A DNA stretch of 62,031 bases, counting the filler, from Sluysia triapertura (taxonomy: Eukaryota): the NCBI GenBank assembly GCA_046118255.1. It is 5 parts of 5 records of this genome, joined end to end, with 100 filler letters (N's around TTAATTAATTAA, not from the genome) between each part and the next. Parts side by side here need not be neighbours in the genome. Positions count along the whole stretch, not along the records: positions 1 to 12,184 come from JBJNIA010131404.1; positions 12,285 to 26,519 come from JBJNIA010002230.1; 3 more parts are not named here. One strand, given 5' to 3'. Both the position numbers and the translations under genes were made by a program. The notes beneath the pieces are model-generated. The model saw only the letters and a program-made list of their open reading frames with translations. It was not told where the DNA came from and did not search any database. Below, piece by piece: positions 4,743-50,539 of this stretch. How positions within the stretch are numbered: the first letter of the stretch is position 1; each line of letters starts with the position of its first letter.

Positions 4743-5048
4743 TTTTATTCTTCCATTGCAAATACAATTAAATTTGCTTCTCTGTTGGTACTGTTCTCAG
4801 TCGAAGTTTAGTTCCATTTGTTTCTGATAGACGAGATTGAAATGCTATTCTAGTAGTTCAAAATCCAATTAGAAACTGAAATCTCTGCACAAAGATATTT
4901 CATAGTCTCATTTTAATTGTTTAACTACGTTTGATGGCAATGGGCGACAAAAATAAATTTGTGAAATGCGCAGGTGTTTCCTATAAAAGGTAATAAAATG
5001 TTGCTTGCTGACGACTGTTTCTAAAAATACTTTATTCTCTTGATTTTG

Positions 5049-5196
5049 NNNNNNNNNNNNNNNNNNNNNNNNNNNNNNNNNNNNNNNNNNNNNNNNNNNN
5101 NNNNNNNNNNNNNNNNNNNNNNNNNNNNNNNNNNNNNNNNNNNNNNNNNNNNNNNNNNNNNNNNNNNNNNNNNNNNNNNNNNNNNNNNNNNNNNNN
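5049..5196. other. Assembly gap (148 N)
   Basis: Run of N without a linker motif. Confidence 0.99.
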
Positions 5197-5620
5197 AGAC
5201 TAAGTTCTTTCTATTCAAAACAGAATCAGAATACATTTATGAATCATTATCTTATTTATTATATGGATTTGAAGCATGCTATCTTAAGAACAACGTGATA
5301 CTGAGTTTACATAAGGTGTGGAAGATATTAAATAAAAATTGAAAGATCTGCGCCATGTTCTTAGATTGAATTAAATTAATTAAGAATGATGTACCAAGAA
5401 ATTCTGAGGTTGTGATTGTTCAAATTTTTCTAAAGATTGTGTGAAGTATAAATTAAAGGTTAAATGATGAATAACTTTATATTTGAGGTGTAGAGTAATT
5501 AATATAAGCTGATGTTTCAAAAAGTATCGAAATTATGTAGAAAGTAAATTATTTGTTTAGCGTTATAAGGTGATTTTGTTTAAAATGATAGAAGTGTAAG
5601 TTATGGTGGTAGCCTCCACA
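5197..5620 (-). mobile_element. Probable 5' end of a cargo-cassette family element, truncated by the gap
   Basis: Minus strand starts TGTGGAGGCTACCACC and continues as a C/A-rich, G-poor tract like copies at 6204, 14781 and 51879. Confidence 0.4.
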
Positions 5621-6203
5621 GTTGTAATAAATCGGAGTGTCCATAAATATCACGATGTCTCATTTTACTCCATGATTATTTTGGAATTTCAGTATATAAA
5701 TCATTGTATAAAATTAAATTGTACTTTTATAATATTTGATTATTAACGATGATAATAATGACAGTTATTCATGTTAATATTACTTGTACAATGCACATAA
5801 ATTTTATTGTGCAATTATTAAAATAGTGTTCGAGGTAAATATTGAACTTATGCGAAAATTGTACAAAATAAATATAAGTACTTTTTAACAATTTAAACGA
5901 TGTCCGAAATCTGAATTCATACTATGTTTAATTTATTACTTTTATAATTGTTTAAATTTTGAGAGTAATATAAATCACCTGAATAAGTAATGCAATAAAA
6001 TTTATCTTATTCTAAATACGTTTAATTAAGGCACAACTTTGTTATGCTATTATTAATTAAATATTTACTAAAGCTGTAATTTTATCGATATATTGCGATT
6101 ATTTGAAATATCATAAATATAGTAAGTGTTTAACTTTAAAATTTGAAAGGTAAGTTTTATTTCTTATTCATTCTGAAAATTCTCAAGTCGAATTTAAAAT
6201 TTT

Positions 6204-8200
6204 TGTTATGGCCAACCTAACAAATTTTATAAAAAAATTGTTTCTTTTTCTTCCGAATTTAACAAAACCACATTCACTTTCAAAATCTTCAATATATATA
6301 TTAAAACTCATTAAAAACACTTTTATACACAGTTCCATATCAACACAATCAAAATTTTATTTTTCAATATTGCACAATTACCTTCTTCACTTTCACTAAA
6401 CCACACTCTTTTCAATGCATTTTTAAGTCACAACATACTAACACCTAAACAGTACTTTCATTTAAAAAATCCACATAAAACATTTATATTATTTCAAAAT
6501 ATTTAAATCATAAACTTTCAACCGTCAAACTCATCTTCAGTCAAAAACATTAAAATACATTTAAAAACATATTAAGCATTTCCTTCTAACATTAGAATCT
6601 CAACTACACTATAAAATTTCATTACAAATACATAACATTAATCAGTTAATTAACTAGTAGACAATTAACTACTTTAAACTAAGAAATAGATTTTTAAATA
6701 TGTTAATAAATAATACAAGAATAAGAAGGAAAGATAATGTTTATGAGATTTAGAAGATTTATGTTTTATATTAAAATAATAATAATAACATTACAATTAT
6801 TATTGTTATTATCACCATTTTTAATTTTTATCATTTTTATCATTCAAATTATTCAATTTATTATTCAATTTAGTAGCTACCATCGTCAATGCCGACACTT
6901 TTAGTTCATGTGTACAGTCAGCGTCATTAGTGATGGTGGTCGTGATGACAATTCATTATGTACTAAATTAGCTTAAATTATGTATTTTTATTGACTGCCC
7001 AATTGAAATCATTAATCTTGGTTACGTTACGTGTTTTAATTAGCAGCCACTAGTATTGCGAAACAGATGAAACAAAATTTTTATTACAAAGGCGGCATTT
7101 TTAATTAAGCAGCCAGACACAACAACTAAAATTTATTATTGACTACTACGACACAATTTTATGATTAAGCAAAAAGTTAAAAATTCTTGTCGCTGAAAAT
7201 TAAGACAAAATCGTTTCAATAATCGTCTCATATTAATGTCAAAAGTTATATCAAGTTTATGAAAATTCACACAAAGTATGTAGACTTAAATTATGAAATG
7301 ATGGAATTAAATATTCATAAAGAAGGAACTTGTGGTGAAGAAAAGATAAAGGCGTTCTCTCTCTTTGAGGAAGCTGAAGTTTATAATCGTCTAATAAGTG
7401 AAGTTCAAAATCCAGATAATTCAATCCCGATCGATATTAATTCTCATGAGTGTAAAGAATCCGAATTGTTAAAAGTAATAGTTGATAATAAAATTCAAGA
7501 ATTTGTAATGTGAAAACTGGAAAAAGGTGAATCAAGGAACGAAAACACGAAATTGTCAGAAGAGTGGCTTCAATTAAAGCAATTTGCTGACTACATGAGT
7601 AAAGAAAATGATGTAATTACAAATGAAACTAATTGGTTACCTCTATACTATGTTCATGAAATGATTATATTACAAAGTAAGAATGCCATGTACGGTCAGT
7701 CATCATTAGATGTAAATAATGTAATAGATATAGTCAATGTATTATTAAAGACTCCAAGGAGGATTAATAAAATGCAAAGCAAGTGTATCAAACAGAAGAA
7801 AGGAATAAAGTACTTGATCAATGATGTTTTTAAGTTGCTATTGATGTTTATTAATAATCAAAGGACAAAACGCAATCTTCTAAAAATAAAAGATGAAGTT
7901 TAATCAGTGTACAAACTGAGTTATTCAAAGTATACGTTACAAATGGTGAAAACGTTATTAATATTACCGAGTCCAAGATCAACACAGAATTAGGATTCGA
8001 CAATGTTTTTACACGATGTCATCAGTCAAATTCATTAAGGATTCTCAATGAATGCTTTGATTTCCTACAATCAATGGAACATATTAAGAACTTAAAGGAT
8101 GGAGCTGCCAATATTACTAGGAAATTAAAAGTAACTGACTTTCCTTATATTTTTAAAATATTTATCATTGTTAATTTTGATTTTTATTATTTTATTCCTT
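6204..8200 (+). mobile_element. Cargo-cassette family element, copy I (3' end not defined)
   Basis: TGTTATGGCCAACC start, C-rich arm ~6260-6640, TTA-rich tract, hairpin block 6873-6941, GCAGCCAC motif ~7043, then a decayed ORF from 7259. Confidence 0.55.
7259..8160 (+). pseudogene. Decayed ORF of unknown function (cargo of cassette I)
   Basis: ORFs 7259-7513 and 7553-7903 are in the same frame, separated by one TGA; after a frameshift a reading frame continues (LFKVYVTNGENVINITESK...MEHIKNLKDGAA). Confidence 0.5.
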
Positions 8201-10879
8201 TTAGTATAGTAAGAAGCGTGAATTCAAAACTAGTTCAATATCGTGTTATAAATGAACAAAATTCTAGATTAACATTTAAAAAATTTGATAAATTTTATAA
8301 AATTCGTTATGAATTGTCTTTTATTATTTTTCAATGTTGTGTAACGTTTAGAATTTTTAAAAAACTTAGTACTATATAAAGTTAATAAATATTCAAATGC
8401 TATAAAAATAAACAATTTCAAAGTTTTGCTTAATGAAGACCAATGTAAATTAAAATTAAAAACTGAAAACAACTTAAAACATTTAATACCACAACAATTT
8501 ATTCGCCTTAAAATAAGTTCACGTCTGATCTGGCTGAACGACACAAACTTTTGTACATATGCACTTATAACATTTTCTTGTTTTTACTTTCGAAAAGCAT
8601 TGTAATATTTTAATTTCTGACGCAAGATTATAATCATCTATCAATATTTCAATAATAAATTTTTTAGTTATTAAAATTATTTCTTAGATTTTTGGTTAAA
8701 CTATTTAGTTGAGCACTTTAAAATTTTCTAATTAAACTCTGTTTCATTTTTTAATTCAAAACTGAGTAAATCAAAATAAAATTCAACCTGAATAATATTT
8801 TCTGTTACACTAATATTACATTTAACAATTACCACAATGCACATAAAGTAATATGAAAAAAACAAAGTAAATGTTCCAAATAAATGTTATAACTACGAAT
8901 GTAAATCAAATATCAATTAAGTAACAATTAGATTATACAGAGCACCAATAACGTAAAAATTATTAAATGCAGCAAGGGTGACAACTCATCAGAACTTAAA
9001 ATGTTAGAGAGCAAGTTTAGTCTTTGTTAAACTAAGAAGAATTAGATTATACTGAAATTATAATATCACAAGATTAAAACTATCAAAGGACAAAAATTAA
9101 ATTAAAATGGGGTGTATCCTAAAAATATTCAAAAATATTTAATCATATTATAAGCCCAAATGACAAAGGTCAAAATACAATTTACAAGGGCAGCTTCCTT
9201 AAAATATTAAAAATCAATATTAAAATTATTATTTTAAAATGTAATAAAATAATAAAGATCCAAAGTCTACCAAATGCGTGAATTATGAATCTTCATTGAA
9301 TGTTGTGGTAACTATTGTTATTGCTGTTGTCTCTGTTATTGTGTTAAAAATTTTACAGCTTTAATTTTTTACTTTCTCATTATCCATCACTCCTGATTTC
9401 TGCAGTTAAACATTTTCTTACACAAGTCATTTGAACATCCTTCGAGAGCTGAGCTCATAATAACAGCTCCGAAATTTATTTGGTATTACTTGTCAGACTT
9501 TATTAAACAAGGAACATAACATAAGGGTCAACAATAATTTTTCTCTACTATACTCGACTTATTTTCTCCAAAATTATTTCTCACAATAAGATAACAATCA
9601 TTAGTATTATAGGCATTCATAAAAATAATGATTTTAACTTTAGTTTTTAGAATTTAATTAATTTTTAGTTTTTCACACTCCATGTTCTTAGTCTCAAACA
9701 GAACAATTATTTTCTTTTGCGTACACTTTTACATTTCAAAACATTTTAAATTCACAATCTTACATCAAAATCAAACTTACATCCAAAATCATTAATACAT
9801 TTAAATTTCATTTAGGACATCTTAACTCATAATCTCAGAACATTAGACTACAATTTACATCTTAAACTATCAAATATACATGTGAAACTAATTCAATACA
9901 TTTTAATGTTCCAATCTTCTAACTTCCAAACCTTCCTTTCTTTCAAAAACATCAAATTCATACAAAACACTTCCAGTTCATATCTTACAACATTAAAATT
10001 ACATTCAAGTTCAAATCATTAATGCACATTAAAACCTTCAAAATAATTCAAAACTTCTCAAAATCACTGCCACTTTCAGAAGTAACGGTCTATAAATAAA
10101 AACTTCATAAAAACATTTTATTCCCAATATAAGCCGCATATGCAGCCTAAAAAACTCTCTAAGTTCACTACTCTTTAATTCTCATTCACACTAAGAAAAT
10201 CAACTATATTAAGATAATTTAAATATGTTAAGAAATAGAAATACAAAGAACTAAAAGAATGATTTTTTGTTATTATCATTTTAAAAAGTTTATGCGATTT
10301 ATAATAATAATAATAAGATTAATATTATTATTACTATCATCATTTTTATTTTTGATTATTTTAAATAATAATTTTATTTATCAACTGTGTAACTACCACT
10401 ACATGTGATGACATTATTAATTCACAATTATAGTTTAATGTCACTACTGATAGTGGTTATTTTATTCAACACACAAAAAGTTGTATATTAGTTAACTTGC
10501 CATCAATCGACAGGTAATTTTAATCAATTAATGTTGCTTTACTAACTGTCGACTGATGACAGCTGATTGCATTTATGATCAATATTTCTGATTAAAATTA
10601 TCAATACCGTTTGCTTTTCGAGTTTTGATTGGGCAGCCACTCATAGTAAAAAAGAATTATCATCAAATTTATTAATACAGTTAACAATTTATAATGCTAT
10701 TCAACAGTCTATTATAAGAGTTATTCTGTATATTATTGAAAAACACTCATCAATATCGTATATTCGTCTTACCCTCGCTTGTGTGCAGCAATATTTGATA
10801 TTCTAATAGGAAAATTGCGAAATAAGAAACTAACTTTAAAGATTTGATATTTTATAAAGATACAAAAATAGTCCACGGA

Positions 10880-11850
10880 CTAAATTTAGATGCTTAATTA
10901 ATGATAACGAACACATCAAGCTTAGATTAGAAGCTCTTTCAGAATCAACAAATGTCGGAATTAAGGATGAAGAAAATGTTGAAATAACTATTCTACGAGT
11001 TTATGCTACAACTGATGTCAACAGAGTACAAGTACAGGCGAAATAGATATCGAAAGATGTGGTTTAAGTATTATTCATTAATATTAGATGATGATGGTTT
11101 CATGTATGTCTAATTTGGTAATACTAAAGATTTGGAAAATAATATTATTCGCTTTGTTGGAAACATTGTTAATCGAATTCAAGAAGATTATTTAAGTATT
11201 TTATCATATTTTAGATTTTTTGAAAGAATTCCGGAACAATCCGATTCACGTGTTGAAGAAATTTTATCTAATGCCAAACAAAATGCCGATGGTCTAAAAA
11301 TTATTAGTGCTGAACGTACTTAGTCAGATGTAACTAAAGTTATTAAAGGTAGATATGCATGTGATTTATTTATTTTTTGTGATATGTTTATTTTGTAAAA
11401 AATGATTTTGAAACTATAAAAAAACAATTTTGTGAGCTTTAAGTAGACGTACAGAGAGATGATGTTTAGAGTGTCACTCTTTTTAGTTTAAATATTGATA
11501 ATGAAAACGAATTAGAAATTATTCATAAGCATTTTAAGTTAAATATTAATGACGTAATTTTTAAATGTTATTTATTTGACAAACGTGATTCGAATATCAC
11601 ATTAAAGAATTCACAAGAGGTTTTCATTGTGTTGGAAATAAAAAAACGAATTAAACATAATCGATTACATATATCAATTAGAATTGTTGAAATCGTTAGC
11701 AAGACCGGAAATAATTCGGGAGCTTAGAACTTCGACGCCTCCAGAGATTCCAGTCAGTGGCAATATACTTTTTAAAATTGCCTTTGAAAGAGCGTTTTTC
11801 AAGTTGATACGTCCACTAACGAGGCTCAAAGGACAAGATCAGATCTGGAT
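10880..11850 (+). pseudogene. Intronless decayed CCA-adding enzyme (class II tRNA nucleotidyltransferase, TRNT1-like)
   Basis: Collinear motifs EENVEITILRVYATTD (cf. EENFEITTLRIDVTTD), IDIERCGLSI (cf. DAERRDLTIN), DLENNIIRFVG...RIQEDYLSILSYFRFF...GLKIISAER (cf. RFVG..RIQEDYLRILRYFRF..ISGER) and PPEIPVSG (cf. PPFPVSG); several stops and frameshifts, no introns seen. Confidence 0.85.
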
Positions 11851-11880
11851 GATTAGTAACGACACTCCAAGTCTGGTTTG

Positions 11881-11946
11881 TGCATGTATGCTGTGACTCC
11901 AGACGGACAATGTACAAAGTATGGCAATAATTGTATATACGCACAC
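11881..11946 (+). pseudogene. CCCH zinc finger coding segment (C-x9-C-x6-C-x3-H) directly 3' of the TRNT1-like region
   Basis: KSGL-CMYAVTPDGQCTKYGNNCIYAH-NTTEL; the CxxYGxxCxYAHxxxEL pattern is typical of TTP/ZFP36-like CCCH fingers. Confidence 0.75.
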
Positions 11947-12107
11947 AATACAACTGAACTAACGGACAACTTCTCTTGGATTTGGAACTTAACAAACCAT
12001 TTTCATAGAATAAAACAATTGTTGTCATCATTGGACACAAGGCCATTCGATTGCAATAATCATCATAACTCAAAAGCAATTGTTAATTTTAATCTGATTT
12101 ATATTAT

Positions 12108-12184
12108 TGTTAGACTTCGTAAAATGGACTGACCGGGGATCGAACCCGGAACCATCGCTGCGCAGTTCGAATGCTCTACCACTG
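12108..12184 (-). mobile_element. tRNA-bearing mini-LTR (LTR-A), truncated by contig end
   Basis: Minus strand: CAGTGGTAGAGCATTCGAACTGCGCAGCGATGGTTCCGGGTTCGATCCCCGGTCAGTCCATTTTACGAAGTCTAACA. Strand is given in tRNA sense. Confidence 0.85.
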
Positions 12185-12284
12185 NNNNNNNNNNNNNNNN
12201 NNNNNNNNNNNNNNNNNNNNNNNNNNNNTTAATTAATTAANNNNNNNNNNNNNNNNNNNNNNNNNNNNNNNNNNNNNNNNNNNN
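12185..12284. other. Artificial contig spacer
   Basis: 44 N + TTAATTAATTAA (stops in all six frames) + 44 N. Confidence 0.97.
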
Positions 12285-14780
12285 TATATATAATTATTAC
12301 ATTATTATAAATTATGCTCAATAAATTTTCATGTAAACGTTTTTATATTAATTAATGATTATTTTTCAAAATCTAATAAATATCAATTTATACAATTCAA
12401 TTAAGAAGTCAAAAAAATTCAAACTTAATGAAATGTTGTAGCAACAAGTGTGTTGTTATTTACGATCCGAATAAAAGAATAAGATTAAAATTAATCAATA
12501 CAATCAATAAAAAGAATATTATATTAAGTGTTAAAATATCGAATATAAAACTACCTAAAAGTGATTCTAACCTTTCTAACATAATTCTTTCGCTGCAACC
12601 GACTTCTAATGTTTTTCTCTATATTAGACTTGATAACGCCCTCTTAACTTCATTAGAATTTATCAACACTCTTATGTATCGTACACTTACACCTTTGAAG
12701 ATAAGGTATAAATCGTGTTATACAAAACCATATAACAAATTTATTCACAAAATTTTAATACTTATAACACGATCCTACCACAATTCTCACAGCCAAAATT
12801 TCTATCAAACACAACCCTCTATAAGCATCCAGTAGCAAAATTAAACATTTTATTTTTATTGGATAAAATTTACGATTATTCAATTTCAGAGACTTTCATC
12901 TAATCATCATCATAAAACTTATTTTACTTTTTATTACAATGAAATCCGTTTAAAAATACAATATTACTTGTTGAAAAGATATAATTTGTCCATTCTGATG
13001 TCCAGATATGAAAGATTCAAGAGAGACTTCTTTCTTTTGTTCAGAAATTTTTTTTCATTATTTAAGAACTTTAAATAAGTAAAACTGAAAATATATCGCC
13101 ATATTGTTTTAATATACAATTATTTATACGGATAAGAAAATTGTTCATTATATTCTCGAAATAATGTTTGAGATCCATAATTATTGTAAATATTGTTGAA
13201 AATGACTTGAAAGAATTTTAATGATATTACTAAAAAAGGTTTTTTTTACAACTTAAAAAGGGCAAAAACTTATCTTCATTAATATCAAAAAATTACTAAG
13301 AAACATCCTTAACCAACAAAGTAGAAGTTGGAAAATATTAAACAAACAAAAATCTATCGCACTTAAAATGTAGCCGATAAAACACGGAAAAATTGCTATC
13401 AAGTACATAAACTAATAATATGAAATATAGTAATTGATGAAAATGTAGTAACAACAATGAAACGTGAATTGTAATTAATGAGTATATAGAGAATCTGGCT
13501 CTACACCCATGATACAAAACTCTGCACGTATCAATTTATATTGAATTAAATTAGTTAAGATACTGATTAGAAGGAAGTTATAAATATTGAATAGTTAAAC
13601 ATGGTACATAAATATCAGAAAATTATTGAATATTACCTGGAACAGTTGCCTTTTTAATAATCTTTTGTACAAATTGCTATTTCAGTATTATATTTTGAAA
13701 AATTACTATTTATATACTATTGTAACAAATTGTTTTAACAATGTCAAAATGCTTATATAATAAATACCGTAAAGATTGTGCATTATATTGTATTTTAATA
13801 AAATTTTACCATTTATTTGTGGAAATAGTACTTAATTTTATTTTATTTAGTTTCAAAATAATATAATTTAATTTATAGTGGATTATTTTAACTATGAGAC
13901 AATTAAAAACTTGAACTTGTGCCGAAAATCGAACTTTTACCTCTGCTAAATAACAAACGAGTCAATAAATTGAAATAAAATTAGTAAAAACAATCAAATA
14001 ACAAATTTGACTAAAATAATAAAAATATAAATTATCCTTCAATTCATTGATTCAGAAATATATGATTGAATTTGAAATTCATTTGTTGAGCTAACGCATA
14101 TCCGGAATATCGATTGTGAACAAGAGGCAAACTTATCTTCCTTTTATCTAATAGAACAATTTATGGATTTCTAAATTATGCAAAATATCAGTAAATATTT
14201 TGTTTCCACTTTTTCCAAGTTAGAATTTTCCATACTCAATAAATATTAATTAGCATTAGCTGAATGTTGATTATTTTTATTTATTGTTAGACTTTTTCGC
14301 TATATTTATTGAAATACAAATCATTAAAATTATATTTTAAATCATTTATATAATTCAAAGCTTTGTTTTTTTTCACACTGAATATTTTCACTTATTTTAT
14401 TCACATTTTTTTATTATCATATTATAATTGTTAAACACATTGTCATTAACAGTATTTTTTAGATCAATTATTGGAATATAAACCTGAGTGATGCGTCTAA
14501 AACATAGAAAAGTACTTTATTTATTTCCTGAATTAGTAATATATCTAGTAAATATTTTATCACAAATTTATTAAACATTTCTTAATTAATTTTAATTTCT
14601 TTTCCAATTTATTATTATTTTAATTAAATTTATTTAAGTATTAAACCTTGTTAATTGGTTTTGTTTTATTTTAATTATTTTGTGAGTGGCTTTAATCTTT
14701 GTTTATATTTAAACAAACTAGTCTATATCAAACTAAAAAATCAATTTTTTGCTTAAATTTAAAAATTTATCATTGTGCAA

Positions 14781-17500
14781 TGTAGTGGCCAACCCCTTAA
14801 CTTAAAAATAAAATAAAATTCACCACATAAAACAACACCACTCATCACACCCTTCAAACATAAAACACCACTCAACTCATTTCATAAAACAATAAAATAC
14901 AATCTTAACACTTCACCAAACTACATCTCACAATAAATTAATCCATATCTGAACATCCCAACTCAATAAACTCTTACATTCATCTCAACAACTCAAAACA
15001 CTCACTCACTAAACACCTTATCAAAATTTACAACATCAATTCATCAAACACTTCACCAACCAACTCACAACCATCACATAAACCCCAAAAATCATAAACA
15101 CAAGAACATGCAAATCATACTCGTAACCATTTCAGAAATAATACCATTCTACTCAAATTTCACGCAACAACAACACTCAAAATCCACCTTACACAACAAA
15201 CTCATCATCTACAATCATCTCAACAACACTACAACATATACAAAATTATTTCGCAATAATCTTTATAAAATCAATTTAACTTCAATCTTTCCAATAAATA
15301 GTTCACACCTTGTGCGTGCATCTTATTCTCAGCCATAAACCTTTTTCAATAAACCTCTACTAAACTTATTCCACATTTCCATCCTTCTTTATCACTTTCA
15401 ATCATACTTTTATTTCACTGTTCTAAATATGTAGAAAATCCAAATATTTTAAGAAAGAGAAGATCATGTAAAAACATAGCAAAGGATTTATGCATTAAAT
15501 TATTGTTATTATCATTATTATCTTCTTTTATTATTCCTTATTATCCTTATCATTCTCTATTACCTTTTGTTATTATTCTTATTATTACTGTTATTATTAT
15601 TCTTTCCTAATTATTATTATTATTCCCTAGCAAATTATTATTATTATTCTTTGTTTTCCCTATTATTATTATTATTTTTCAACATTATTATAATTCTTAT
15701 TTTTATTCGTCATTTTCTCTTTTATTATAACCGTTTTACATCTGCACTTTTATTACAAATATTAGTCACTCCTATTACTATTCACTACCATTGTTAATCA
15801 CATGCGTAAATTTATTTATTACATAATAATTGACAACACATAGAGTGCACGATCGGATGGAGTCAGAATTGATTTCAATCAGTGATGTTCATTTTGGCAC
15901 ACCACAGTGCATGAAATACTTCGATCGTGACAAATGAAATAGTACAAAAAATCGATTTGTCACAGCATTGTATAATAGTCTAAACACATGCCTTCTAATC
16001 TTATGCTCATTGGTTAAAAAATAAGAGGGTAGTTTATTTCAACATTAAGCGATTAAAAATAAAAAACATTTGATTAGCCAACCATTCACAGGTTAAAAAC
16101 AAAAAATCAATACAGACAAGAAAGGCAGACAGAAGATACACAACAAAAAAATTAATAGTTCGTCAGCCATTTTGATAAAAATTAATTTAGACGTTTCTTT
16201 TCACAATATTGTAAATTAATCAGACAGACGAAAATTTCAAAAACAATCTCGGCATCCAAATTTTTTAAAGACGATTTTAATCATAATAACCCATATGATG
16301 AATGATTTTAGTCATCATGCACGTTCTGTTGAAGTTCCAGATATCGTTACTGGCAAGAGTGGTGACAAACTAAAATGGAATAAAGCAGTAGTCGGCCGTG
16401 TCACATTTTCTGATAGTATGGAAGATGCAGTTAAAGAAAACCAAGCAAGATATGAGAACCGCGAATGTTTATTTTCCACAGACGGTTACTATACCAACTT
16501 TACAAACAGTGAATTAAATAAAATGTTTAATTGTCAATACGATGTTATAAGTCGCCAGTTTGTATTTCACTATCGCTCTGAATGTTATGATCAAGCTCAT
16601 TCAACAATCAAGGTTAACTGGGAATGTTTAAAACCGTCGGATAGCTTTAGATGTGATACACGACCTGTTAAAGTTTCAGATATCGTTTCTGGCAAGGTCG
16701 GTGATGTACTACAATGGAATAAAGGAGGAGTCTGCAAAGTTACAACTTTAGTGATTACAGAAGTTTCAGTAAAAGAGAGTCAAGCAAGATGCGAAAACCG
16801 AGATAATTTCAGCCAATTCTTCAACCGCAATTACAATACTCTAAGCTACCAGTTTGCACGCTATTATTCCTGTGAACCTCACGATCAAGCTCGTTCAATG
16901 ATTAAGAATAATTTAAAATGTTTAAAGCTGAATGAAGCAAATGAAATTAATCAAGGCAAGTATAACGTAGTGGATTTGACCTACGATGATATGTCAGACT
17001 TAAAATGCGTAGATGATTTAGAGTTATGTAAGTACAGTACGATCAAGTCTGTGGATGTTTGCCGCAACGTATCACGATCAAAAGGTTGTCAGCTGTTGGA
17101 ACACTGGGAAACACTACGCGCTGGCCGTGTTACGTGCTTCGTCCAGTTCAACCGTTCCTGCGAATCCTCCAGAAAAAGAAGGGTAATGTCGATTGTTTTC
17201 ACGTTACATTTTTATCATATTAATTATTTAAATCATTTAATCATTGTTTTGATAGAATATTATAAAAACTGTTTAATTGAACACTCATGTCATCTTTTAT
17301 ATTACAGAAAAATTATCCAGTGCATTGGCGAAGGTGGATCGTTGGAAAAAGAAAAGAGCTGTCACAGGATGAACACTAGATCAATTGTGGACAAACTGAA
17401 AATCTTATATAAATTAATAAATTTTATGTCTATAACTACTTTGTGTCGACCTATATATTTGATAATAAATAAATTTAATATTAAACCTTTCAAATTTCTT
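14781..17500 (+). mobile_element. Cargo-cassette family element, copy III, probably in a DYNC2H1 intron, antisense (3' end not defined)
   Basis: TGTAGTGGCCAACC start, extreme C/A-rich and G-poor arm 14800-15420, TTA tract 15500-15730, ATTGG/GCCAACC motifs ~16010-16085, cargo ORF from 16295. Confidence 0.55.
16295..17379 (+). CDS. Uncharacterised tandem-domain protein; likely exons 16295-17182 and 17308-17379 (319 aa)
   Basis: Long open frame with two ~100-aa homologous units (V(P/S)DIV(T/S)GKxGDxLxWNK...VKExQARxENR...QF..xY..ExxDQAxSxIKxNxxCLK) and a partial third; GG/GTAATG donor at 17183 and TTTTATATTACAG acceptor ending 17307 give an in-frame last exon KNYPVHWRRWIVGKRKELSQDEH*. Confidence 0.6.
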
Positions 17501-17767
17501 TTTAAAATATATACGGGGTTCAACCAATCCTATTTAAATAGATTATTTATAATTTTTGTGGAAACCCTTGATGTAAGGTCAGAACAAACCTATGTAACCA
17601 TAGATTACGAGCCGATTAAACTTTTGAATCCGACGTTTCCTGATAATAAGTTTAAACGCCCTCAATTCGTTCATCAACCATATTATAAAAATTCTCCAAT
17701 TAATTTTTTAAATTTTTATAATAAATCTCGACCCAAGACAACGACCTCACCCATACAAGAAGAGTCC

Positions 17768-17870
17768 CGTGAGTCAATTGACGTAAATGCTTGCAATTGG
17801 TTGATACTTTCAGAGTGTGTTGGAATTAAGGTTATGACATTACTCAAATATGTCAATTGACTGTTTTGGT
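17768..17870 (-). mobile_element. Internal fragment of the piggyBac-type MITE family seen at 50154
   Basis: AATGCTTGCAATTGGTTGATACTTTCAGAGTGTGTTGGAATTAAGGTTATGACAT is the near-exact reverse complement of ~50250-50306. Confidence 0.7.
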
Positions 17871-18431
17871 GGTAAATTTTATTATGAATTTTTTAATGAT
17901 TGATTTTATGTTATCCTTATTATAATTGTTATAAGAAGTTATGTAATAAGGTGTTCCTTGTCTTCTAATTTGGATATAAATGTAAAATCACATAAAAGTA
18001 AAAGTAAACATGAAAATAAAAGCAACACCAAAGTAAAATAACGTATGAAAGTAAAAGGCAGCATACGATTAAAAAGAAATATAGTGTAAAATCAAGTTTG
18101 AAGGTTAGAGCAAAACATAAGAGTGAAGATAAGCCTAAAGACGGAGTATAAAAGCGAGATCAGAAGAACTAGAAACGAAACCTTAAGTAAGCAAGTTAAT
18201 TAATTAATGAAGCATTAAAGATGATAAAATAGATCTAGTCGAAGTATCAAAATTGAGGAAATAAAATATAAAGACATAAGGAATATCGACCTTAAGCCGG
18301 CTATTTAAGCGAAGTATAGTAAACACCCTCAAATTCCTAAATCATTATAATTATCTATGATTTGATGACATTCACTAAGTTCATTGAATATTCATAATTA
18401 GAATGTACTTATAAACATATTTTAATTTTAC

Positions 18432-18715
18432 CTGAAGTAAGGACTCTTCCATTTTTGCTAATTCTATTTTTAATTGTTCTTCTTGATGTAAAAGTGCTGT
18501 TTTACGTTCCTCTAATTTTGGTTTTACATGCTGAATAGTGATAGCTAATAATTGACCACGTAATCCGGCACGCGTAGTAGTAAAATTGATTGGTGATACA
18601 CTAGCCGCTGCATCTGGTGTTAATAATAAGGTACTATCTCTAGTAGCTAGCAGAAGTCTAAATTCTGGATTGAAATCTAATTGTTTATCACCGATAGTTA
18701 TTATCTGTCTAGTAC
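18432..18715 (-). CDS. DYNC2H1: Cytoplasmic dynein 2 heavy chain 1, internal exon (AAA5 region)
   Basis: GTRQIITIGDKQLDFNPEFRLLLATRD...PDAAASVSPINFTTTRAGLRGQLLAITIQHVKPKLEERK...QEEQLKIELAKMEESLLQ matches recalled DYNC2H1 (NFTTTRSGLRGQLL...LAKLEESLL); AG acceptor and GT donor, phase fits the upstream exon. Confidence 0.93.
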
Positions 18716-19179
18716 CTATTAAATTAAGCAAAACATAATGATAATACTAAGTTATTTAAAAACCTACTCATTAACATATATTATTTTTTAAGTTTTTAAA
18801 AATTCTACCTTTTAAATATTGCTAAAAGTGAAAATCATTCAAAAATATTTGTTTCAGATTACATAAAGTACTTGAGGTTTTTGAAGTTGTAGTGATCAAC
18901 GAAGACAGATTTTTAAAAACGAAGTATTTCGTATAGAAGAAACAGTGACCTCAATAAATAAATGTGCATCTTACAATCAATCAAAGATATTTGTTTTACT
19001 AATTAGGCTTCTATTATCTAATGGAATTTTGATTTATAATACTTTTTATATGCATTTTAATTATATTAATATAGGATTTTTAGTTAGTTTGGGGGTTGGG
19101 AAATATTTCTACGTTCTGAACATAAAATATAATAATGTGGTATAAATTTTTATTTGGAAAAAATTAGATTGATTGCGTA

Positions 19180-20326: not shown

Positions 20327-20507
20327 TTATATTACTAATTATTATGTTATTCAATTTGAAAAATATTGTCAATTATGAATATGAAAATTATATTTTTAGA
20401 GTTAAAAATGAAATCGCAAATATTCAATTCTTTATATATTTAACAATAATAATTGTTTAACATAAATAATTAGACAATATGCAAATAATAATAATAATAT
20501 TAATAAC

Positions 20508-20631
20508 CTTGCGTTACCACTTCCTTACGTAATATCGGATAAAGAATCGGTTCTACTTTATCCAATTCTTGAATAACCAAAGTTTTTCCGAATCGAATAG
20601 CAAGCTCTAATGCAGTATTAAAATTAGAATC
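20508..20631 (-). CDS. DYNC2H1: Cytoplasmic dynein 2 heavy chain 1, internal exon (absent from ORF track)
   Basis: [41 protein letters not shown](G), cf. recalled DSNFITALELAVRFGKTLIIQEMDGVEPVLYPLLRRDLVAQG; TTTAG acceptor, GT donor, phase 1 joins the 18715 exon. Confidence 0.93.
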
Positions 20632-23656: not shown

Positions 23657-24349
23657 TCCCGCCTCCCTAGACACATTTGTAGATGTAACTCTTGGTTCTT
23701 GGGAACCAGAAAATGATTCTGTCTTTAAAAAGTTAGGTTTCCGTAAAGGTGATATTACTGGGTTGGCACGCCAGTGTATCGAGCTATTCCTAGAATCTTC
23801 CTTTAATATCTATAAAGACCATTCTCTTCAATATTAATTCTCGTGCCTTTGGGTTTCATTTCCTTTTTTGTGACGAATAATATTATGATTCTTTCTTTAT
23901 CTCCCTTTAATACATTAATAAAATCCTTTGAATTTTCCAATGCAACAACCATATTATTTCTTCTTCTTTTTAAATGCTTGTAAATCTTCCATTTTCCCCT
24001 CTATATAATGAATTTTTAAATTATTCCAATCTTTTTCTCTCTTATTTCTTATAGAAAATTGTTTTTATTTGAAAATTTAATTAAGGTTAATGGAATCAAA
24101 TTAAAGAATTTATTTTTATCTTTACAATGTCATTAAGATAACAGGTAAAACATTTATTTACAAAATAAGCTAATACACTATTTGGGTTTATAACAGTATC
24201 GCAGAGTAATAACGAATAAAGTTCTTCAATTAAACTGAAATATGCCATTGTCTTAGCTTCACATCTTTTTCTGAAAGAGAAACAAACTATGTGATAATTG
24301 TAATAATTATTCTCAAAATGTAAAATAAAAATAAAAATATAATTTACTT

Positions 24350-25130
24350 TGGAAAAAATTGTAATGTCGAAGTATCTTAATGATGTTGGTTTAACTTGAG
24401 ATTGATCGAATGGCGAGCACCAAGAATTGATTACTTCGAGAACTGGAATTGGCATTAATTCCTATAATCCATGTGCATAAGGACATGATTTGCCATACAT
24501 AGTACATAGTCCTGTTGTTGAAGTTTCGTAGATGTATATAGCAGATTTCATATAATATGATTTAATTTGACAGCATTTTTTCCATGGTTTATCATGAGTC
24601 GGATTTTAGATGAACATCTGTAGTTGATAAAACATGATTATTGCTAATTACACCAATGGAAGAGTCAGAGTTGAAATTGAATTGCCTTAACATGGCTAAT
24701 GTTTACACTCTAAGTATTAGGTAATAAAGTTACAATGTTATTATCAGTATTAGTGATAGCTAACGAATTACATTGACATACAGGATGTTGTAGTGATTGT
24801 TTGAACATACTAAGTTGATTTTTTAAAATAAGGTCTTTATTTCTTTTTGTTAACTCATAATGATAATCAATAATCTTTAATAACGTTACTGAAAGAAACA
24901 TGTTAGCTATCAAAGTTTGAATATAATCTCGTAATTCTGAACAATAACTTTTATTAACAGCTCTTCGTTTGTTTCTGCTTGATTAGTGTGATATTTTCTA
25001 AATTTACTGACAATTAATACCTGATCACGCTTTATGACTTTAAATGCGTATTATCATAGTCATAATAATCTTCATACTCATAATGATCATTATACAAATT
25101 GTCGTCAAAATTATTATTAAATTTTTCATG
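24350..25130 (-). pseudogene. Decayed ORF ending in a CCCH zinc finger homologous to the one at 11881
   Basis: 24536-24471 encodes (KSAI)YIYETSTTGLCTMYGKSCPYAH(GL*EL), same x9/x6/x3 spacing with the first Cys codon as TAC; broken upstream frames include ORF 24710-24913; CCAAT box at ~25292. Confidence 0.6.
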
Positions 25131-26095
25131 AGATTTTTAGAAAATCAGAGTTTGCTTTTAGAAATGGAATTTAAAATTTTTTAATTTGTGAATATAACTT
25201 GTAAAATTGTAGTAACCATGGTTTTCTAATTAATCATTCAAATTCTATTGAGACCAACAAAATAATGTAAAAATGAGACTGTGATTAGACAGCCAATCAG
25301 AGAACATTGTCGAACAACTAATTTGTTGCTATGTTTATTTTATATTCTGTCATTAACATCTGTCATTATTGAATATAATTTTATATAATTTTATATAATG
25401 ACAGGCATGAAATTAAATATTTTTTAATGTTAAAATAAATAATGATAATAAATGTAAAGGTATAAAATTTTATTTTGTTTTTGTTTTTATGTTTTATATT
25501 TTATTTTGTAAAGTATTATAAAAACGTATTAAAAAATTACAAAAAATGTTATTATTTAAAAAAATATAAAAATTATAAATAAAATTTAAAAAAGAATGTT
25601 CTGGAACCAAATTGTTTTGTAAATTAAATTCAAAAATATGAATCTTTATAGTCACATGACTATATAAGAACAAAGAGCAGTAGAACCATCATATTGATAT
25701 TTTCAAATTATTAGTCGCCATTTTGTTATCGGTCATATTAATTCCATTCATCATTTATGGTTCTCTTCGGTGCTCAATTAATTAGATTTCGCGTGTTCGA
25801 TTAGAGAAATCTCAAATCAAATTCATTTCGATCCAGTTAAATATTCAAAAAAGTTTGTAGACTCGCAAGTGTTAAAATATTCACCTAACATATCTAGTTT
25901 TCAGTTGTCCCCTAAGTCCAATTATAAAATCATTATAGATAGTTCTTTTATTACAATTAATTCATTATCGTTATTATATTTTTATTATTATTGTTCTACT
26001 TGAAATGTTACTCGTATTATCGAATTAATAATGTTATTTTAATTTTTGTGTATAATAAATCTTTGTAAATTTTTAATAAATATAAGAGACTTTTT

Positions 26096-26144
26096 GATAA
26101 CTCAGTGTTCGATCCCCGGTCAGTCCATTTTATGAAGTCTAACA
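26096..26144 (+). mobile_element. LTR-A fragment (internally deleted tRNA part plus terminus)
   Basis: GATAACTCAGTG-TTCGATCCCCGGTCAGTCCATTTTATGAAGTCTAACA. Confidence 0.8.
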
Positions 26145-38712: not shown

Positions 38713-39032
38713 TGTTGGGATACTGTTAGACTTAATAAAATGGACTGACCGGGATCGAACCCAGTACCTTCGCTGCATAGTTCGATTGTTCTACCACTGA
38801 GCTACCAGCCCCGTCTAACAGTTTTATTTTTATTATATTCAATTATACTACTTGGCACTTTAGGCCTTCGTACCCCAACAATACAGGCCTAAAGTGCCGT
38901 AGAATGATAGAATTGACTATAATAAACTAAAATTGTTAGATGGGGCTGATAGTGTAGTGGGTACAACATCGAACTGAGCAGCAAAAGGGTCCGGGTTCGA
39001 TTCCAAATCAGTCAATTTTATGAAGGCTAACA
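38713..39032 (+). mobile_element. LTR-A full copy (older host copy) interrupted after base 11 by a second copy
   Basis: TGTTGGGATAC [insert] AGGCCTAAAGTGCC...TGTTAGATGGGGCTGATAG...GGTTCGATTCC...GGCTAACA; 4-bp TSD CAGG (38709-38712 and 39033-39036). Confidence 0.88.
38724..38880 (-). mobile_element. LTR-A full copy (157 bp) nested in opposite orientation; tRNA-like part 38741-38811
   Basis: Minus strand TGTTGGGGTAC...GGGCTGGTAGCTCAGTGG (A box)...GGTTCGATCC (B box)...TCAGTCCATTTT...GTCTAACA; 4-bp TSD ATAC (38720-38723 and 38881-38884). Confidence 0.92.
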
Positions 39033-40261
39033 CAGGTATAGTAACAAATTTATGCGTACAAACAATTAAATTTAAAATAATGTGCATAATATCGTAAATA
39101 TGATCGAATAGCAACTTCGACACGTTGACCTTTCACAATTTTGTACGACTTTTAATTGTTAAAGTTTTATTATCCTCTTTAATTAACTCTGGAATCTCGC
39201 CATTTTATAAATTACACTTTCCAAATCTGATTCGGTATCAACAATTCGGTTCAATTTATTTGTGGTTAAACGAACTTTTCAATTTGTAGGAAACGTTCAC
39301 TTTGAATTTATCATTTTTATCATAGCATTAATATGATTGGCAAAGTATGATAGTATAACATCCAAATTTATAAAATATTTGTCAGCAACATAATTGTCAG
39401 TAATATTAATATCAAATAAAATCTCTGAATGCTTTAAAAATATTTGATATCATAAAATAATTATATAAAAATAGTAATATAATATGTGAGCATGGTCATT
39501 TTAAATTGAGATTACATAGAAATAGTATGAAGTTAAAATTTATAAACATTAAATATTATGATTGATTATGTGAACAAAATTATTTTAAATTGAGAAATAT
39601 TTAAAGTAATTTTTTTATTCAAAATTTTTTATGTACAAAATGAATGAAAAAATAATAATAATCTATTGCTACGTAAAATTCATGAATGCATGGTATTATG
39701 TACAAAATGAATGAAAAGTAATTTTAACATTAATAATAATAATTTTATCAAAAATAATAATAATAAGTTATTGATACATAAAATTAGGAATAAAACATGT
39801 GTACATGTATGATAGCATGGAACATGCATGATGATAAATATTATTAGTTAATTGAAAAATATCTGACATGAAATGGATTGCGCATAAAAAATGTTTTATT
39901 TAATGGTTGAAATTAAATGAATACAATTTTTTAATATCATGCTTCTGTGTTCTGTGATATTACATCAGAAAGTACATAAGATATATTCGCATTTGAGTCC
40001 AGTTAATGTGTGATGAAGCTTGTAGGATATTAAGTTTGTAAATTTAATTTCAGCCTAAAATTTTTTCATAAAAATTCTCTAAAATATATTCATATTTTTA
40101 TAAATTTTAAATAAATCAATATTTAATTATATTGAATGTTTACTTCTGTTTGTTATTTAGACGTCATAAATTTTTCATTTGATCAAATAAATGTATAAAC
40201 AACTCAAATACTCAAATATTTTCTTTATTTTATAAATATGCCGTAGTTTTTTCTAACACTT

Positions 40262-42408: not shown

Positions 42409-43460
42409 TTAATATTAATATTAATTTATATGGCGCTCATATCTACTGCAAAGTAAGTACTCAAAAGTGCTTTAAGTAAGTCATTCACTATAATATTTCT
42501 GAAACAGAAACAACATTGCCCGTTTCTTAAATATTTCATAATCTTCCAGTAATTTGACATTCTCTTGTAACTGGTTGTATATTTTTGAAACATAAACGGT
42601 ATAGAACCTATCACCTAGCTCTTAATATCACTGTTAGACTTCATAAAATGGACTGACCCGGAATCGAATCCAAAACCTCTCGCTGCGCAGTTTGATGCTC
42701 TACCACCACTGAGCTATCAGCCCCATCTAACAATCTATTATAGTCAATAATACCATCATGGCACTTTAGGCCTTTTGACCACAACATTATTATGTCTCAA
42801 TGAAATATTTATTTTGGTTTCCACATTTTTAATTATTTCTAAAAGATATTCAGGACTTCCGCAATGTAAGCATTTGTAAATTATTGTCATGATTTTGAAT
42901 TCTATTCTTCCTTTTATTGGCAACCAATGTAATTCTTTGAGATATGGTGTTATATGAGATCTTTTGCCAACTTGGGGAATTACTCTTGCTGCTTCATTAA
43001 TTATTTTTTCACTTTTCTATTGAAATTGAGTACAACAAACTATTGTTAAAATCTATGTTAGCTATCAATGAGTGAACAATAAGTTTAGCTGTTTCTTTAT
43101 CAATAAATTTTCGAATATTTGATATTTTATTTAATTGATATTTACACTTTTTAACAATACAATTAATATTTTCTTCCATGTTCATTTTTGAATACATCTA
43201 GTGTGTCTTACCACCTACAATTAACTTTGCTTCATTTATTTTGATATTGTCTCTATTTTTATTACTGAAGATTACAAATTCCGACTTTTCTTCATTGTTT
43301 ATTTTCAGTATTTTTTTTCCAAACCATTTTATCAATTCAGATACTTGTTCTTCTGTTCTTTGAATAGTATTTTCTATGTTGTTCATTTCAAATTGAGTAT
43401 ATATTTGCACGCCATCAGCATAAATCTGGTATTTAAAATTATATGATTCGATTACATAAA
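42360..43460 (-). mobile_element. 5'-truncated L2/CR1-clade LINE (RT C-terminal half, 3' end, (TTA)n tail)
   Basis: YQIYADGVQIY (degenerate YADD), IKWFGKKILKIN..KSEFVIF, IRKFIDKETAKLIVHSLI..IDFNNSLL, SHITPYLKELHWLPIKGRIEFKI; tail repeat at 42360-42410. Confidence 0.85.
42632..42786 (-). mobile_element. LTR-A full copy inserted in the LINE; tRNA-like part 42649-42723
   Basis: Plus strand TGTTAGACTTC...GGCACTTTAGGCCTTTTGACCACAACA; absent from the LINE paralog at ~31990; no TSD match, with a flanking deletion relative to the paralog. Confidence 0.85.
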
Positions 43461-44464
43461 AGTAGGAATCAAAAACTGAAATGCCTAATATTTGAAAAAT
43501 TAGTACAAATTACTCTCGATGGCACAACACTTGCACGTAATAATGTATTATAATCGATTCATTAAACAATTTGGTCGATAATCTACAAGTTCCATATTTC
43601 TAATTGACGATATATCCGGAGACGGTGGGTTTGATTATGGGCACAAGTTTGAAGGATCTGATTGGTTGTCATCTTAAATTTGGATTTGTTGTGGCTAAAT
43701 TGGAAGTGGTTGCTTTCTTTATTCATTGCTACTTTATGAGAAGCTGAGGAATGATAATTCATCATACATCGATATTATTTTAGGAGTGCAGCCCTAAATA
43801 ATTAAAATACACTTCAACAATGTATCAATAACACAAAACATTGGATATAAAATTGGCCAATGGTAATACTGCGTTATGTACTCTTTAATATGTACCTTTC
43901 TTCATACCAGTAATTTGACACTAATACTGTAATATTGTCGTAGGTCGAATATTTCCGATCTTTGAGATATATTCAAAGCATTTGTTACATCTTTACTTAT
44001 TTCTAATAAGAGAGCATCAAATTGAATTGACATTGTTTTGATTGGTGATGATGGGAATGAGACAGCTTTCTAGATTAATTGAGTAGATCATTTAATTATG
44101 TATCTAATATTACAGTGACTCCTTCACTGTGATGGCGAATAATTTAATTTATCATTTGACCACGATTCTGGTATGCGAAAATATTTTGGTAATCTTTGTT
44201 CTTAATTCATTGCACACAAACAATGATTCAATAGAAATCGCAGATGCTATTATTTACCGCACTTTGCATATGAAAAGAAGACATTTTCTTGTCCATGTGT
44301 GTGCATGCGGAGGTAGAACAAAGAATTTATTTCGTCATTTTTTCATTAATGTGTGCAGGAATAGACAAATTGTTGTGCATACATAAATAGGCACAAATAA
44401 AACATTTTGCGTCATATTAAAAACGCAGATCATATTTCAGGTTATATCAGTTATTGGTTGAAGC

Positions 44465-45602: not shown

Positions 45603-45722
45603 TGTAATAATTCAATATGTTATTTTATTTTATTATTATTATTATTAATAGCATAAAAATTGAAGTTTTACGAAGTTCATTGTAGAAATAATCATTTATA
45701 AGTAGTATTAATACGATGAATA

Positions 45723-45982
45723 TAACGATAATTATCTGAATATTCCACTTTGAAAAATGAAAATCACAATGATACAAAAGCAAACAATGTATTGAGTGGT
45801 CTCCATTTCAAGAATAGTGACTGAAATAAAGTGACTGAAAGGATACTGACAACCCCAACATAGGGAAGAACATGCAGGGTTTCTAACCTATTCTTGAAAT
45901 GGAGACCACTCAATACATTGTTTGCTTTTGAATCATTGTGATTTTCATTTTTCAAAGTGGAATATTCAGATTATTATCGTTA
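45723..45982. repeat. Long inverted repeat: 95-bp arms (45723-45817, 45888-45982), 70-bp spacer
   Basis: Arms are reverse complements with about 2 mismatches. Confidence 0.92.
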
Positions 45983-46440
45983 CATAGATTTACAGCAAAT
46001 TTATAAGTTCATTAATTAATTAATTTAATTAGAATTATTTGAAAATCATTTTTAATCAATAACTTTCGTTATGATGCTTGCACAAGAGCGGGTATCACAC
46101 ATTATAAAACACAATCATGAAATGTATCAATGTTATGAACACTAAGACAGTGTGAAACACGTCAACGTAGAAATATGTAAAATCATCAGTTATAAAGTTA
46201 AATTTCTACGTATTATGATGAACATACATGATAAAAGTATGTATTAAAGTAATGCTCATTAAGGGGTCATTCTAAATATGTTATTGAAATGGACGTGTGA
46301 CGCACTGACCGCGTTGCGTATTGTATCGAAAGTTATTATTAAAATCAAGTTTTATATTCAATTTAAGTTAACCTATCGTTGTATTGATAAGTATTATTAT
46401 AACCATGATCTTAAATTTTATTTTTATTACGTTCAAAAGG

Positions 46441-49591: not shown

Positions 49592-50153
49592 TATTAATTA
49601 AGAAATCAATGTTTTATTTTTTGTTGTTTGTGATTCTTTTCGATTTAAGATAAAAAGAATTAATTTTACAAAAATCCCTGACAAACTTATTAAATTTGCA
49701 TTTTATGAAATTGATTTAAAACGAGCCTCAACCTCAAATATGCTGAAAAAAATGCAAAGTTTATTACGAAGAATATAATTTTTAGGTGCCTTTGAGAAAG
49801 TATAAACTAATGAGAACCTCAAGCTCGACAACGTATTGCAATAAATTATAGTTGAAAAGAATATCCCCTTACGTTGATAATGAGAAATGAATTAAATTGT
49901 GGTAATTTTATTAAATTCATTATCTGAGTATATTAATAAAATAAAATCTCAAAAATTATATCATAACATGTTACCTGGTAATGGTACCTAGATCAGAATA
50001 ATAAACTTGACATTAGTAACGAATTTTGTTTAATTATTTAAAATCATCATACAGATAAATTTGTATTAAAATATTAATTTCAGTGTTTATATCTAGTATT
50101 TAAATTGTTAATAATATTCCCAAAATGATGGCTCATTTGAAAACACATTTTAA

Positions 50154-50361
50154 CACTAGAAGGACCAAGTTGGTTAATTGACGCAAATGATATATTTGAC
50201 TAATGCCATTATCGGAGTTTACATGGGAAAATTATGAAAAAATACGACGATGTCATAACCTTAATTCCAACACACTTCTGAAGGTATCAGCCAATTGCAA
50301 GCATTTGTGTCAATTATGCACGTGGGCTTTCTAGGTATTATAAATTCTAGTTCTCCTAGTG
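50154..50361. mobile_element. piggyBac-type MITE (208 bp)
   Basis: TTAA-CACTAGAAGGAC...GTTCTCCTAGTG-TTAA: imperfect TIRs and TTAA TSD. Confidence 0.8.
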
Positions 50362-50539
50362 TTAAATACTGTTATAGAATAGAGGATTACCACTGAATTT
50401 TAAAATCTAAGATAATACAGTAGATACCGCTGTGGTGTCACACTTTAACACAACATACATATCATCCATCATCACCATCAATTACACCAACTACATCACA
50501 AACACTAAACACATCAACATATACAATATCAAACTCTAC

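Follow-up and report, generated by a model that had tools for sequence, protein, structure and literature searches.

Capture of genes by transposons is known, and in animals it usually leaves few copies. Partial, multi-gene and re-amplified retrocopies have been described inside animal long terminal repeat (LTR) elements (Tan et al. 2016, PMC5131818). We analysed a stretch of 62,031 nucleotides (nt), fillers included, from Sluysia triapertura (GCA_046118255.1; hereafter the window), which carries a family of repeat ends, here called heads; the full heads are followed by differing frames, here called their cargo. The resemblance to chimeras formed by LTR-mediated retroposition is that partial, intron-less host pieces, sometimes from two genes, lie within a unit that is copied again. 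The chimeras as described there differ, with both LTRs and leftover retrotransposon coding sequence flanking a retrocopy of few copies (PMC5131818), whereas here neither flank was found, the head is an arm-plus-hairpin module of about 1 kb, and the cargo reaches tens to hundreds of times the flank depth.

An earlier note on this DNA had linked the heads to the Burro elements of planarians, which likewise have a flatworm host, very high copy number, multi-kb LTRs implied by their sizes, and host-like domains (PMC6431247). Compared by description only, Burro differs in encoding one gag-env-pol polyprotein of ~4,900 residues with MATH, BCL2, BIR and ankyrin domains (PMC6431247), none of which was found in the 27, 12 and 91 frames scanned (a subset of the frames of the window). 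Membership in Burro is unsupported, since we found no gag, pol, integrase, second LTR, right end, primer site or target duplication. The antisense open reading frames between pol and the 3' LTR of Grande, RIRE2 and Retand, which have their own promoter, would match the reversed orientation discussed below; in the account given they are conserved, of obscure origin and mainly from plants, whereas the cargo here is interchangeable host scrap (PMC7264820). Ginger1 and Ginger2 share the TGTNR ends, and Pack-TIRs capture genes between inverted repeats in animals (PMC2836005, PMC8277862). Ginger elements are described with short inverted repeats, 4-bp duplications and an integrase-like transposase (PMC2836005), and Pack-TIR captures as DNA-level events with a median of 224 bp (PMC8277862), none of which we could show here. 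Gene-capturing Helitrons also carry mosaic host fragments and amplified retrogenes and make no target duplication, but the TC and CTRR termini reported for them are absent from the heads (PMC4224331). We met no published account of a flatworm family of this kind in a literature search that covered sources other than Repbase, Dfam and subscription papers.

The heads are a real mobile-element family, of a class that falls short of proof. We tentatively read them, with slightly less than even confidence, as ends of a mobile element that is very abundant in this flatworm, probably a non-autonomous derivative of a Gypsy-type long-LTR element that carries captured pieces of mRNA. We observed a sharp TGTNR end, a fixed order of modules, cargo from host genes and, at one head, multiplication of arm and cargo without the left flank. 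To the earlier note we add this depth evidence, which starts at the TGT, the identity of the cargo at that head, the rejection of one candidate 3' end, and a reading of the heads as reversed LTRs. The heads are labelled c1 (6204, plus strand), c2 (about 9700, plus), c3 (14781, plus), c4 (51879, minus), c5 (5620, minus) and c6 (50431, plus), and their parts are as follows.

6204..6695 (+): c1 terminal arm with end TGTTATGG, G-poor and C/A-rich (composition, change-point)
6696..7140 (+): c1 block from AATATGT to TTTATG, TTA tract and two degenerate hairpins (shuffles, folding)
9690..10220 (+): c2 arm with eroded outer end (shuffles, profile)
10221..10660 (+): c2 block, TTA tract and hairpins at 10385-10470 and 10495-10560
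14781..15424 (+): c3 arm with sharp TGTAGTGG end and very high depth in public run X1
15425..16250 (+): c3 block, long TTA tract and diverged hairpin/leader region
50980..51879 (-): c4 head with TGTGGTGG end, arm, block, TTA tract and two strong hairpins
5197..5620 (-): c5 candidate, TGTGGAGG end and G-poor arm running into a gap; no supporting alignment
50431..50539 (+): c6 candidate, TGTGGTGT end and 109 nt of arm, then a gap; no supporting alignment

The predicted starts were recovered as TGTTATGGCCAA at 6204(+), TGTAGTGGCCAA at 14781(+) and TGTGGTGGCCAA at 51879(-), that of c2 near 9700 being eroded. All five intact ends fit TGTNR, and those of c4 and c6 fit TGTGGYG, which has been tabulated as a motif of the CsRN1 clade of Gypsy elements. 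By count, the TGT motif is only mildly enriched in the window (six seen versus 2.3 expected). A further TGTAGTGG word, at 2647(+), precedes DNA that lacks the G-poor composition and shows no alignment to the arms. The G-poor, C/A-rich arm was borne out: the window holds five long G-poor/C-rich blocks, all at c1-c5 (the arm of c6, cut by the gap, has only 109 nt), and the arms contain 3-8% G and 18-30% C. A motif-blind change-point lay 8 nt past the TGT in three of the five heads that have one; in the remaining two it preceded the TGT by 19 and 37 nt. All four full heads (c1-c4) then carry, in this order, an AATATGT block, a TTTATG word, a TTA tract and CTACCA. Two hairpins of ~60-80 nt, whose letters differ in each copy, follow the TTA tract; they are strong in c2 and c4 (z -2.4 to -6.4) and weak in c1 and c3, and those of c4 carry two palindromes of 15-17 nt. 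The ACTACCA motif does occur in the heads, but it is the start of hairpin one or of a palindrome and not a separate word. The CCAAT motifs claimed as a shared feature fared worse, with CCAAT or ATTGG at 1.9 per kb in the window, which puts the bare word at chance level. The longer CCAATC is found, among c1-c4, in c2 (box at 10632, minus strand) and c4 only, one pair in c4 making up hairpin arms; some of the CCAAT words belong to the arms of hairpin two. On the strand opposite the cargo, the word CATAAA is present in all four full heads. Short hydrophobic frames cross the TTA tract in c1 and c2 and meet an immediate stop in c3 and c4. No known RNA families were found in the heads, and two arm patterns searched in metagenomes gave no match.

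Because blastn connected c1, c2 and c4 only across the TTA block (~71%), we scored pairwise alignments of the modules against local triplet shuffles. Among c1-c4 the arms gave z 1.5-3.6 over six pairs and the AATATGT block z 2.2-5.0, and the region after the TTA tract gave z 4.6 for c1-c2, 5.6 for c2-c4 and -0.7 to 1.9 for the other four pairs. A profile of c1, c2 and c4 detected the held-out c3 at E 7.9e-5, against 0.041 for the best reversed-window control. From these scores and the detection of c3, c1-c4 are judged to be old, diverged relatives whose likeness, as had been proposed, goes beyond base composition; it is weak at the letter level but above local shuffles. The arm profile detected neither c5 nor c6; against the same shuffles c5 was not significant with any head, and c6 reached z 2.6 at most (its weak alignment with the c4 arm, z 2.6, was matched by 5 of 200 shuffles). 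These two, earlier taken for probable truncated starts, share the end and the composition but, to judge from alignment, nothing more.

A decayed or open frame follows each of the four full heads, in the same orientation and within ~0.9-1.5 kb, and a related cassette (c8) lies elsewhere in the window.

7223..8379 (+): c1 cargo, decayed frame with one internal stop and a frame change near 7900
10897..11850 (+): c2 cargo, decayed copy of the tRNA CCA-adding enzyme (TRNT1), broken by stops and shifts of frame
11860..11961 (+): CCCH finger of Unkempt type, downstream of the TRNT1 piece (PF25427 at E 4.7e-7, narrowly short of the curated cut-off)
12098..12184 (+): short repeat of tRNA origin interrupting c2, then a gap
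16295..17860 (+): c3 cargo, open mosaic frame of 521 codons
50759..51016 (-): candidate c4 cargo, a short frame that holds a 54-bp repeat in 2.4 copies and is truncated by a long interspersed nuclear element (LINE)-like fragment and a gap
24096..25450 (-): c8, related cassette in which no arm is recognisable; it has decayed frames, a CCAAT box and an Unkempt-type finger

The cargo thus differs from head to head, as the earlier note had it, with no identity found for the frames of c1 and c4. That of c1 had no match in PDB or Pfam, and a 129-residue piece of it had none among 1.84 billion representative proteins and a single-sequence fold with a predicted local distance difference test score (pLDDT) of 49. 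The c2 piece matched TRNT1 at E 6.3e-12 with collinear spacing, and no intron interrupts the 122 residues for which a place on the human chain was found (residues 75-196 of 8cbm). Sequence after 11320 is presumably TRNT1 too, by resemblance only; the later pieces gave no TRNT1 match. The finger of c2 found no match to longer proteins in a protein search. A second Unkempt-type finger lies in c8 at 24465-24605(-) (PF25427, E 5.5e-7; z 5.3 to the c2 finger), and this finger follows different upstream frames in c2 and c8.

The c3 frame contains fragments of the cap guanine-N7 methyltransferase in a 339-nt tandem repeat, followed by sequence without identity. The "tandem-domain protein" of the earlier note consists of duplicated mRNA cap guanine-N7 methyltransferase fragments. 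Its match to human RNMT (E 4.6e-10) spans residues 14-143, and the methyl-donor motif in it has an altered GCG. This alteration and the absence of the C-terminal half make it likely that the product is an inactive mosaic. Searches of the frame against proteins of 286-912 residues and of its protein against viral contigs gave no match. At c4, the 54-bp repeat behind a claimed 18-residue repeat protein is present, but with only 2.4 copies in an 85-codon frame and no Pfam match it is weak as cargo. We also considered a finger-like pattern of Cys residues in c3 and c1, which neither alignment nor Pfam supported. AT-rich, intron-like GT..AG stretches of 73-77 nt occur at 8131-8204(+) in c1, 17183-17255(+) in c3 and 24347-24271(-) in c8. 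They lie in phase 0 after lysine or arginine, are read through without a stop and cannot be aligned with each other, and splicing would end the frame within 16 codons.

Read depth was obtained from the contigs of public run X1, which held 65% of the sampled c3 words; the profile of X1 recurred ~300-700 times lower in runs X2-X4, which were not counted as independent. Summed contig depth is not copy number, and the following values give orders of magnitude only. The left flank of c3 is a 931-nt contig of depth 11.8 that has no differences and stops at 14780, a break that hints at an allele lacking the insertion. Beyond it, summed depth was 0.4-1.3 million in the first 450 nt of the arm (14836-15237), 110-680 in the late TTA tract and leader, 5,000-12,000 in the methyltransferase repeats, and ~630-2,100 in the rest of the cargo (630-1,870 over most of 17250-17833); after 17865 it was ~20. 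Zero depth at 17958-18174 is uninformative, since the records are filtered. Five contigs with zero to one difference, covering parts of 16359-17737, had depths of 97-185, which is 8-16 times the flank depth, and cargo variants 11-17% diverged had depths of 224-452. To an order of magnitude, the arm is extremely abundant, and the young subfamily that includes c3 numbers some 4-16 near-identical copies. Because the left flank is low in depth and ends at 14780 while the cargo is multi-copy, the c3 cargo lies inside the multiplied unit, as the earlier note had proposed; the same would hold for c1, c2 and c4. The multiplied part begins with the TGT and excludes the flank, a pattern that speaks for transposition rather than segmental duplication. 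Because the leader is low in depth, no contig directly joins head to cargo in other copies, and this link therefore rests on the window.

The c3 frame is open over 521 codons, in which random sequence of its composition would be expected to contain ~39 stops. Among 68 of 80 differences taken from a list of 573 (the other 12 lay outside the frame), each scored alone, 18 were synonymous versus 17.9 expected at random, and none was a stop versus 3.7 expected (P about 0.02). The two repeats of c3 in the window differ evenly across codon positions (14, 14 and 15). In other copies, the joints between tandem units measure 156, 339 and 495 nt, all in frame. These results do no more than suggest a frame that stays open without synonymous bias or protein constraint; it is probably kept open for RNA and not for protein.

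At the far end we followed a fold-back module that occurs twice in the window.

17773..17860 (+): internally deleted copy of the fold-back module, where multi-copy depth ends near 17864 with no recognisable terminus
50150..50345 (-): full module of ~190 nt, 92% identical to c3 over 66 nt

Family contigs run past 17840 with the same letters as 50250-50200(-), where c3 is deleted. The word TTATGACA, common to 17839 and 50251, was rejected as a 3' end: six contigs continue beyond it, and it lies near the fold-back centre. The stretch 17943-18370, between c3 and a dynein exon, is A/G-rich, starts with TGTAATA and has no X1 contig coverage; it is possibly another element end.

For an element of the long-LTR type, a fixed arm and hairpin module would be followed by host-gene pieces that had been acquired from mRNA and then multiplied together with the element. 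The cargo may be captured by template switching during reverse transcription and transcribed from the hairpin/CCAAT module, and a Gypsy-type integrase supplied from elsewhere would integrate the copies. Cargo that is intron-less (the TRNT1 piece of c2), partial, from more than one gene and re-amplified fits LTR-mediated retroposition. The proposal that the heads are ends of a mobile element is supported by their TGTNR ends and by the multiplied arm and cargo of c3; no link to gag-pol, right ends or target duplications were found. Several results weigh against the long-LTR interpretation. Depth was measured for c3 alone, in a run that is possibly the source of the assembly. By depth no right end of c3 is visible, and c2, c4, c5 and c6 run into gaps or later insertions. 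A search over 9 kb for ACA plus flank, from six starts, gave only chance-level matches to a target duplication of 4-6 bp. By eye, no primer-binding TGG stands directly outside any of the five ends, and TGG follows CTACCA in one of four heads; no polypurine tract or second LTR was seen in the window, and the frames scanned held no Pfam domain of gag, reverse transcriptase or integrase. TGTNR is common to Gypsy LTRs and Ginger DNA transposons. The word RGTGGY is common to palindromes and ends (15 in heads versus 3.7 expected), c6(+) and c4(-) converge across a gap like inverted ends with flanks that do not match, and the intron-like stretches of c1, c3 and c8 would vanish from sense RNA. The strand preference of the hairpins is inconsistent, clearly for the opposite strand in two of eight and absent or slightly for the cargo strand in the others. 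Only two of the joint lengths are independent, because 495 = 156 + 339; one variant joint, 17245-17403, adds an in-frame stop, and an extra base at 17813 in ten contigs causes a late frameshift.

Orientation within the LTR model is a matter of about even odds. Read forward, the heads have no primer site between head and cargo. On the opposite strand the order is hairpins, CATAAA, a U-rich stretch, 0.45-0.65 kb of G/T-rich sequence and an end in CATAACA, CACTACA or CACCACA; LTRs have been described as having a poly(A) signal, then a GT-rich stretch, then the end. The head would then be the right half of an LTR with the arm as its U5 end, and the cargo an antisense gene read from a 3' or solo LTR. 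Since no primer site lies outside the five ends, they would be ends of 3' or solo LTRs, and introns in the cargo would survive copying. A more specific form of this would be an as yet undescribed flatworm retroelement lineage that has an antisense cargo slot in its LTR behind a two-hairpin promoter. Scraps of host mRNA would fill the slot again and again, and selection would keep it translatable, for example so that the RNA avoids decay, while its amino acid sequence drifts. This form is speculative, and we consider it distinctly improbable.

The strongest competitor, which we regard as unlikely but worth serious attention, is a Ginger-like or foldback DNA transposon, in which two inverted long arms would enclose captured DNA or inserted retrocopies and the palindromes would be transposase sites. 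Such an element would account for the convergence of c6 and c4, for the RGTGGY words and for intron-like stretches kept in the cargo, and it has precedents in the TGTNR ends of Ginger (PMC2836005) and in the multicopy Pack-TIRs reported from animals (PMC8277862). The inverted repeats tabulated for Ginger, however, are 40-297 bp (PMC2836005) and the heads ~1 kb; c4 and c6 differ in their flanks, and the alignment of their arms is weak. No strand-switch joint was seen among 15 of the 26 joints, no transposase is linked to the heads (an integrase-like one of the Ginger type was absent from the scanned frames in or beside them, as it would be from non-autonomous copies), and nothing in a DNA route would explain why a junk frame stays open.

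Rather less probable still, in our view, is that the cargo lies outside the element, with ordinary solo LTRs or short elements as heads that stand by chance in front of retrocopies and lend them a promoter. The arm depth in X1 is 100 to 1,000 times that of the cargo and falls to 110-680 across the TTA tract, so that most arms lack the c3 cargo; no right end follows the cargo, and c8 is a cassette without a recognisable arm. On the other side, the c3 cargo is multi-copy in several subfamilies next to a low-depth left flank, all four full heads precede a frame in their own orientation, and the Unkempt-type finger recurs. A Helitron-type rolling-circle element with captured gene pieces is very unlikely: capture and amplification of gene fragments and retrogenes without target duplication (PMC4224331) and the fold-back near the far end of c3 would suit it, but a Helitron has TC at its start and a short stem-loop plus CTRR at its end, all five ends here are TGT (or ACA reversed), and the family continues beyond the ~190-nt fold-back. 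Chance likeness of low-complexity, AT-rich DNA, to which the TTA-only blastn joins, the several pairs no better than shuffles and the background level of bare CCAAT might point, has almost nothing left to it and is refuted for c1-c4 (c5 and c6 remain candidates) by the module order in four of four, the profile detection of c3, the hairpins of c2 and c4 and the depth step at 14780.

The window is AT-rich, mostly 19-33% G+C, with five gaps. Its host genes include an F-box gene (53635), a CFAP43 exon (47393) and, on the minus strand, exons of a dynein heavy chain (20503-20631 and 18381-18746). Of 84 candidate relatives of the F-box protein, 23 passed; 21 of these were named flatworm proteins, from flukes, tapeworms and Macrostomum at 46-62% identity, and two were unnamed. 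Because its F-box relatives are flatworm proteins, the host is by this protein likeness a flatworm, and probably a free-living one. A fragment of a Tc1/mariner-type DDE_3 transposase lies within the F-box gene region at 55593-56228(+) (E 9.6e-8), and 45720-45985 holds a 98-nt inverted repeat, 97% complementary with a 70-nt spacer, that resembles a miniature inverted-repeat transposable element. The tRNA-derived short repeats start with TGTTAG and lie at 12098-12184, 26101-26143, 38714-39040 (two mutually inverted copies) and 42622-42790. A 110-nt repeat (73%) at 9538-9647 and 61326-61429 is separate from the heads; it has decayed coding-like sequence on the minus strand and stands back to back with c2. 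We take 42756-43509(-) and 50640-50790(-) to resemble the end of a LINE reverse transcriptase, a likeness with no Pfam match; the second of them truncates c4. After a gap, 12380-12835(+) is an open frame of 151 codons, C/A-rich at its end, with no Pfam match; it was tried as a relative of the c3 tail and the two did not match, and it is possibly another cargo end.

A family with arms at very high copy number, and with a mosaic cargo multiplied by tens to hundreds, would supply flatworms with new chimeric genes on a large scale. The antisense cargo slot, if true, would be a genome-wide mill for mosaic genes, and the family would test whether selection acts on an open frame without acting on its protein.

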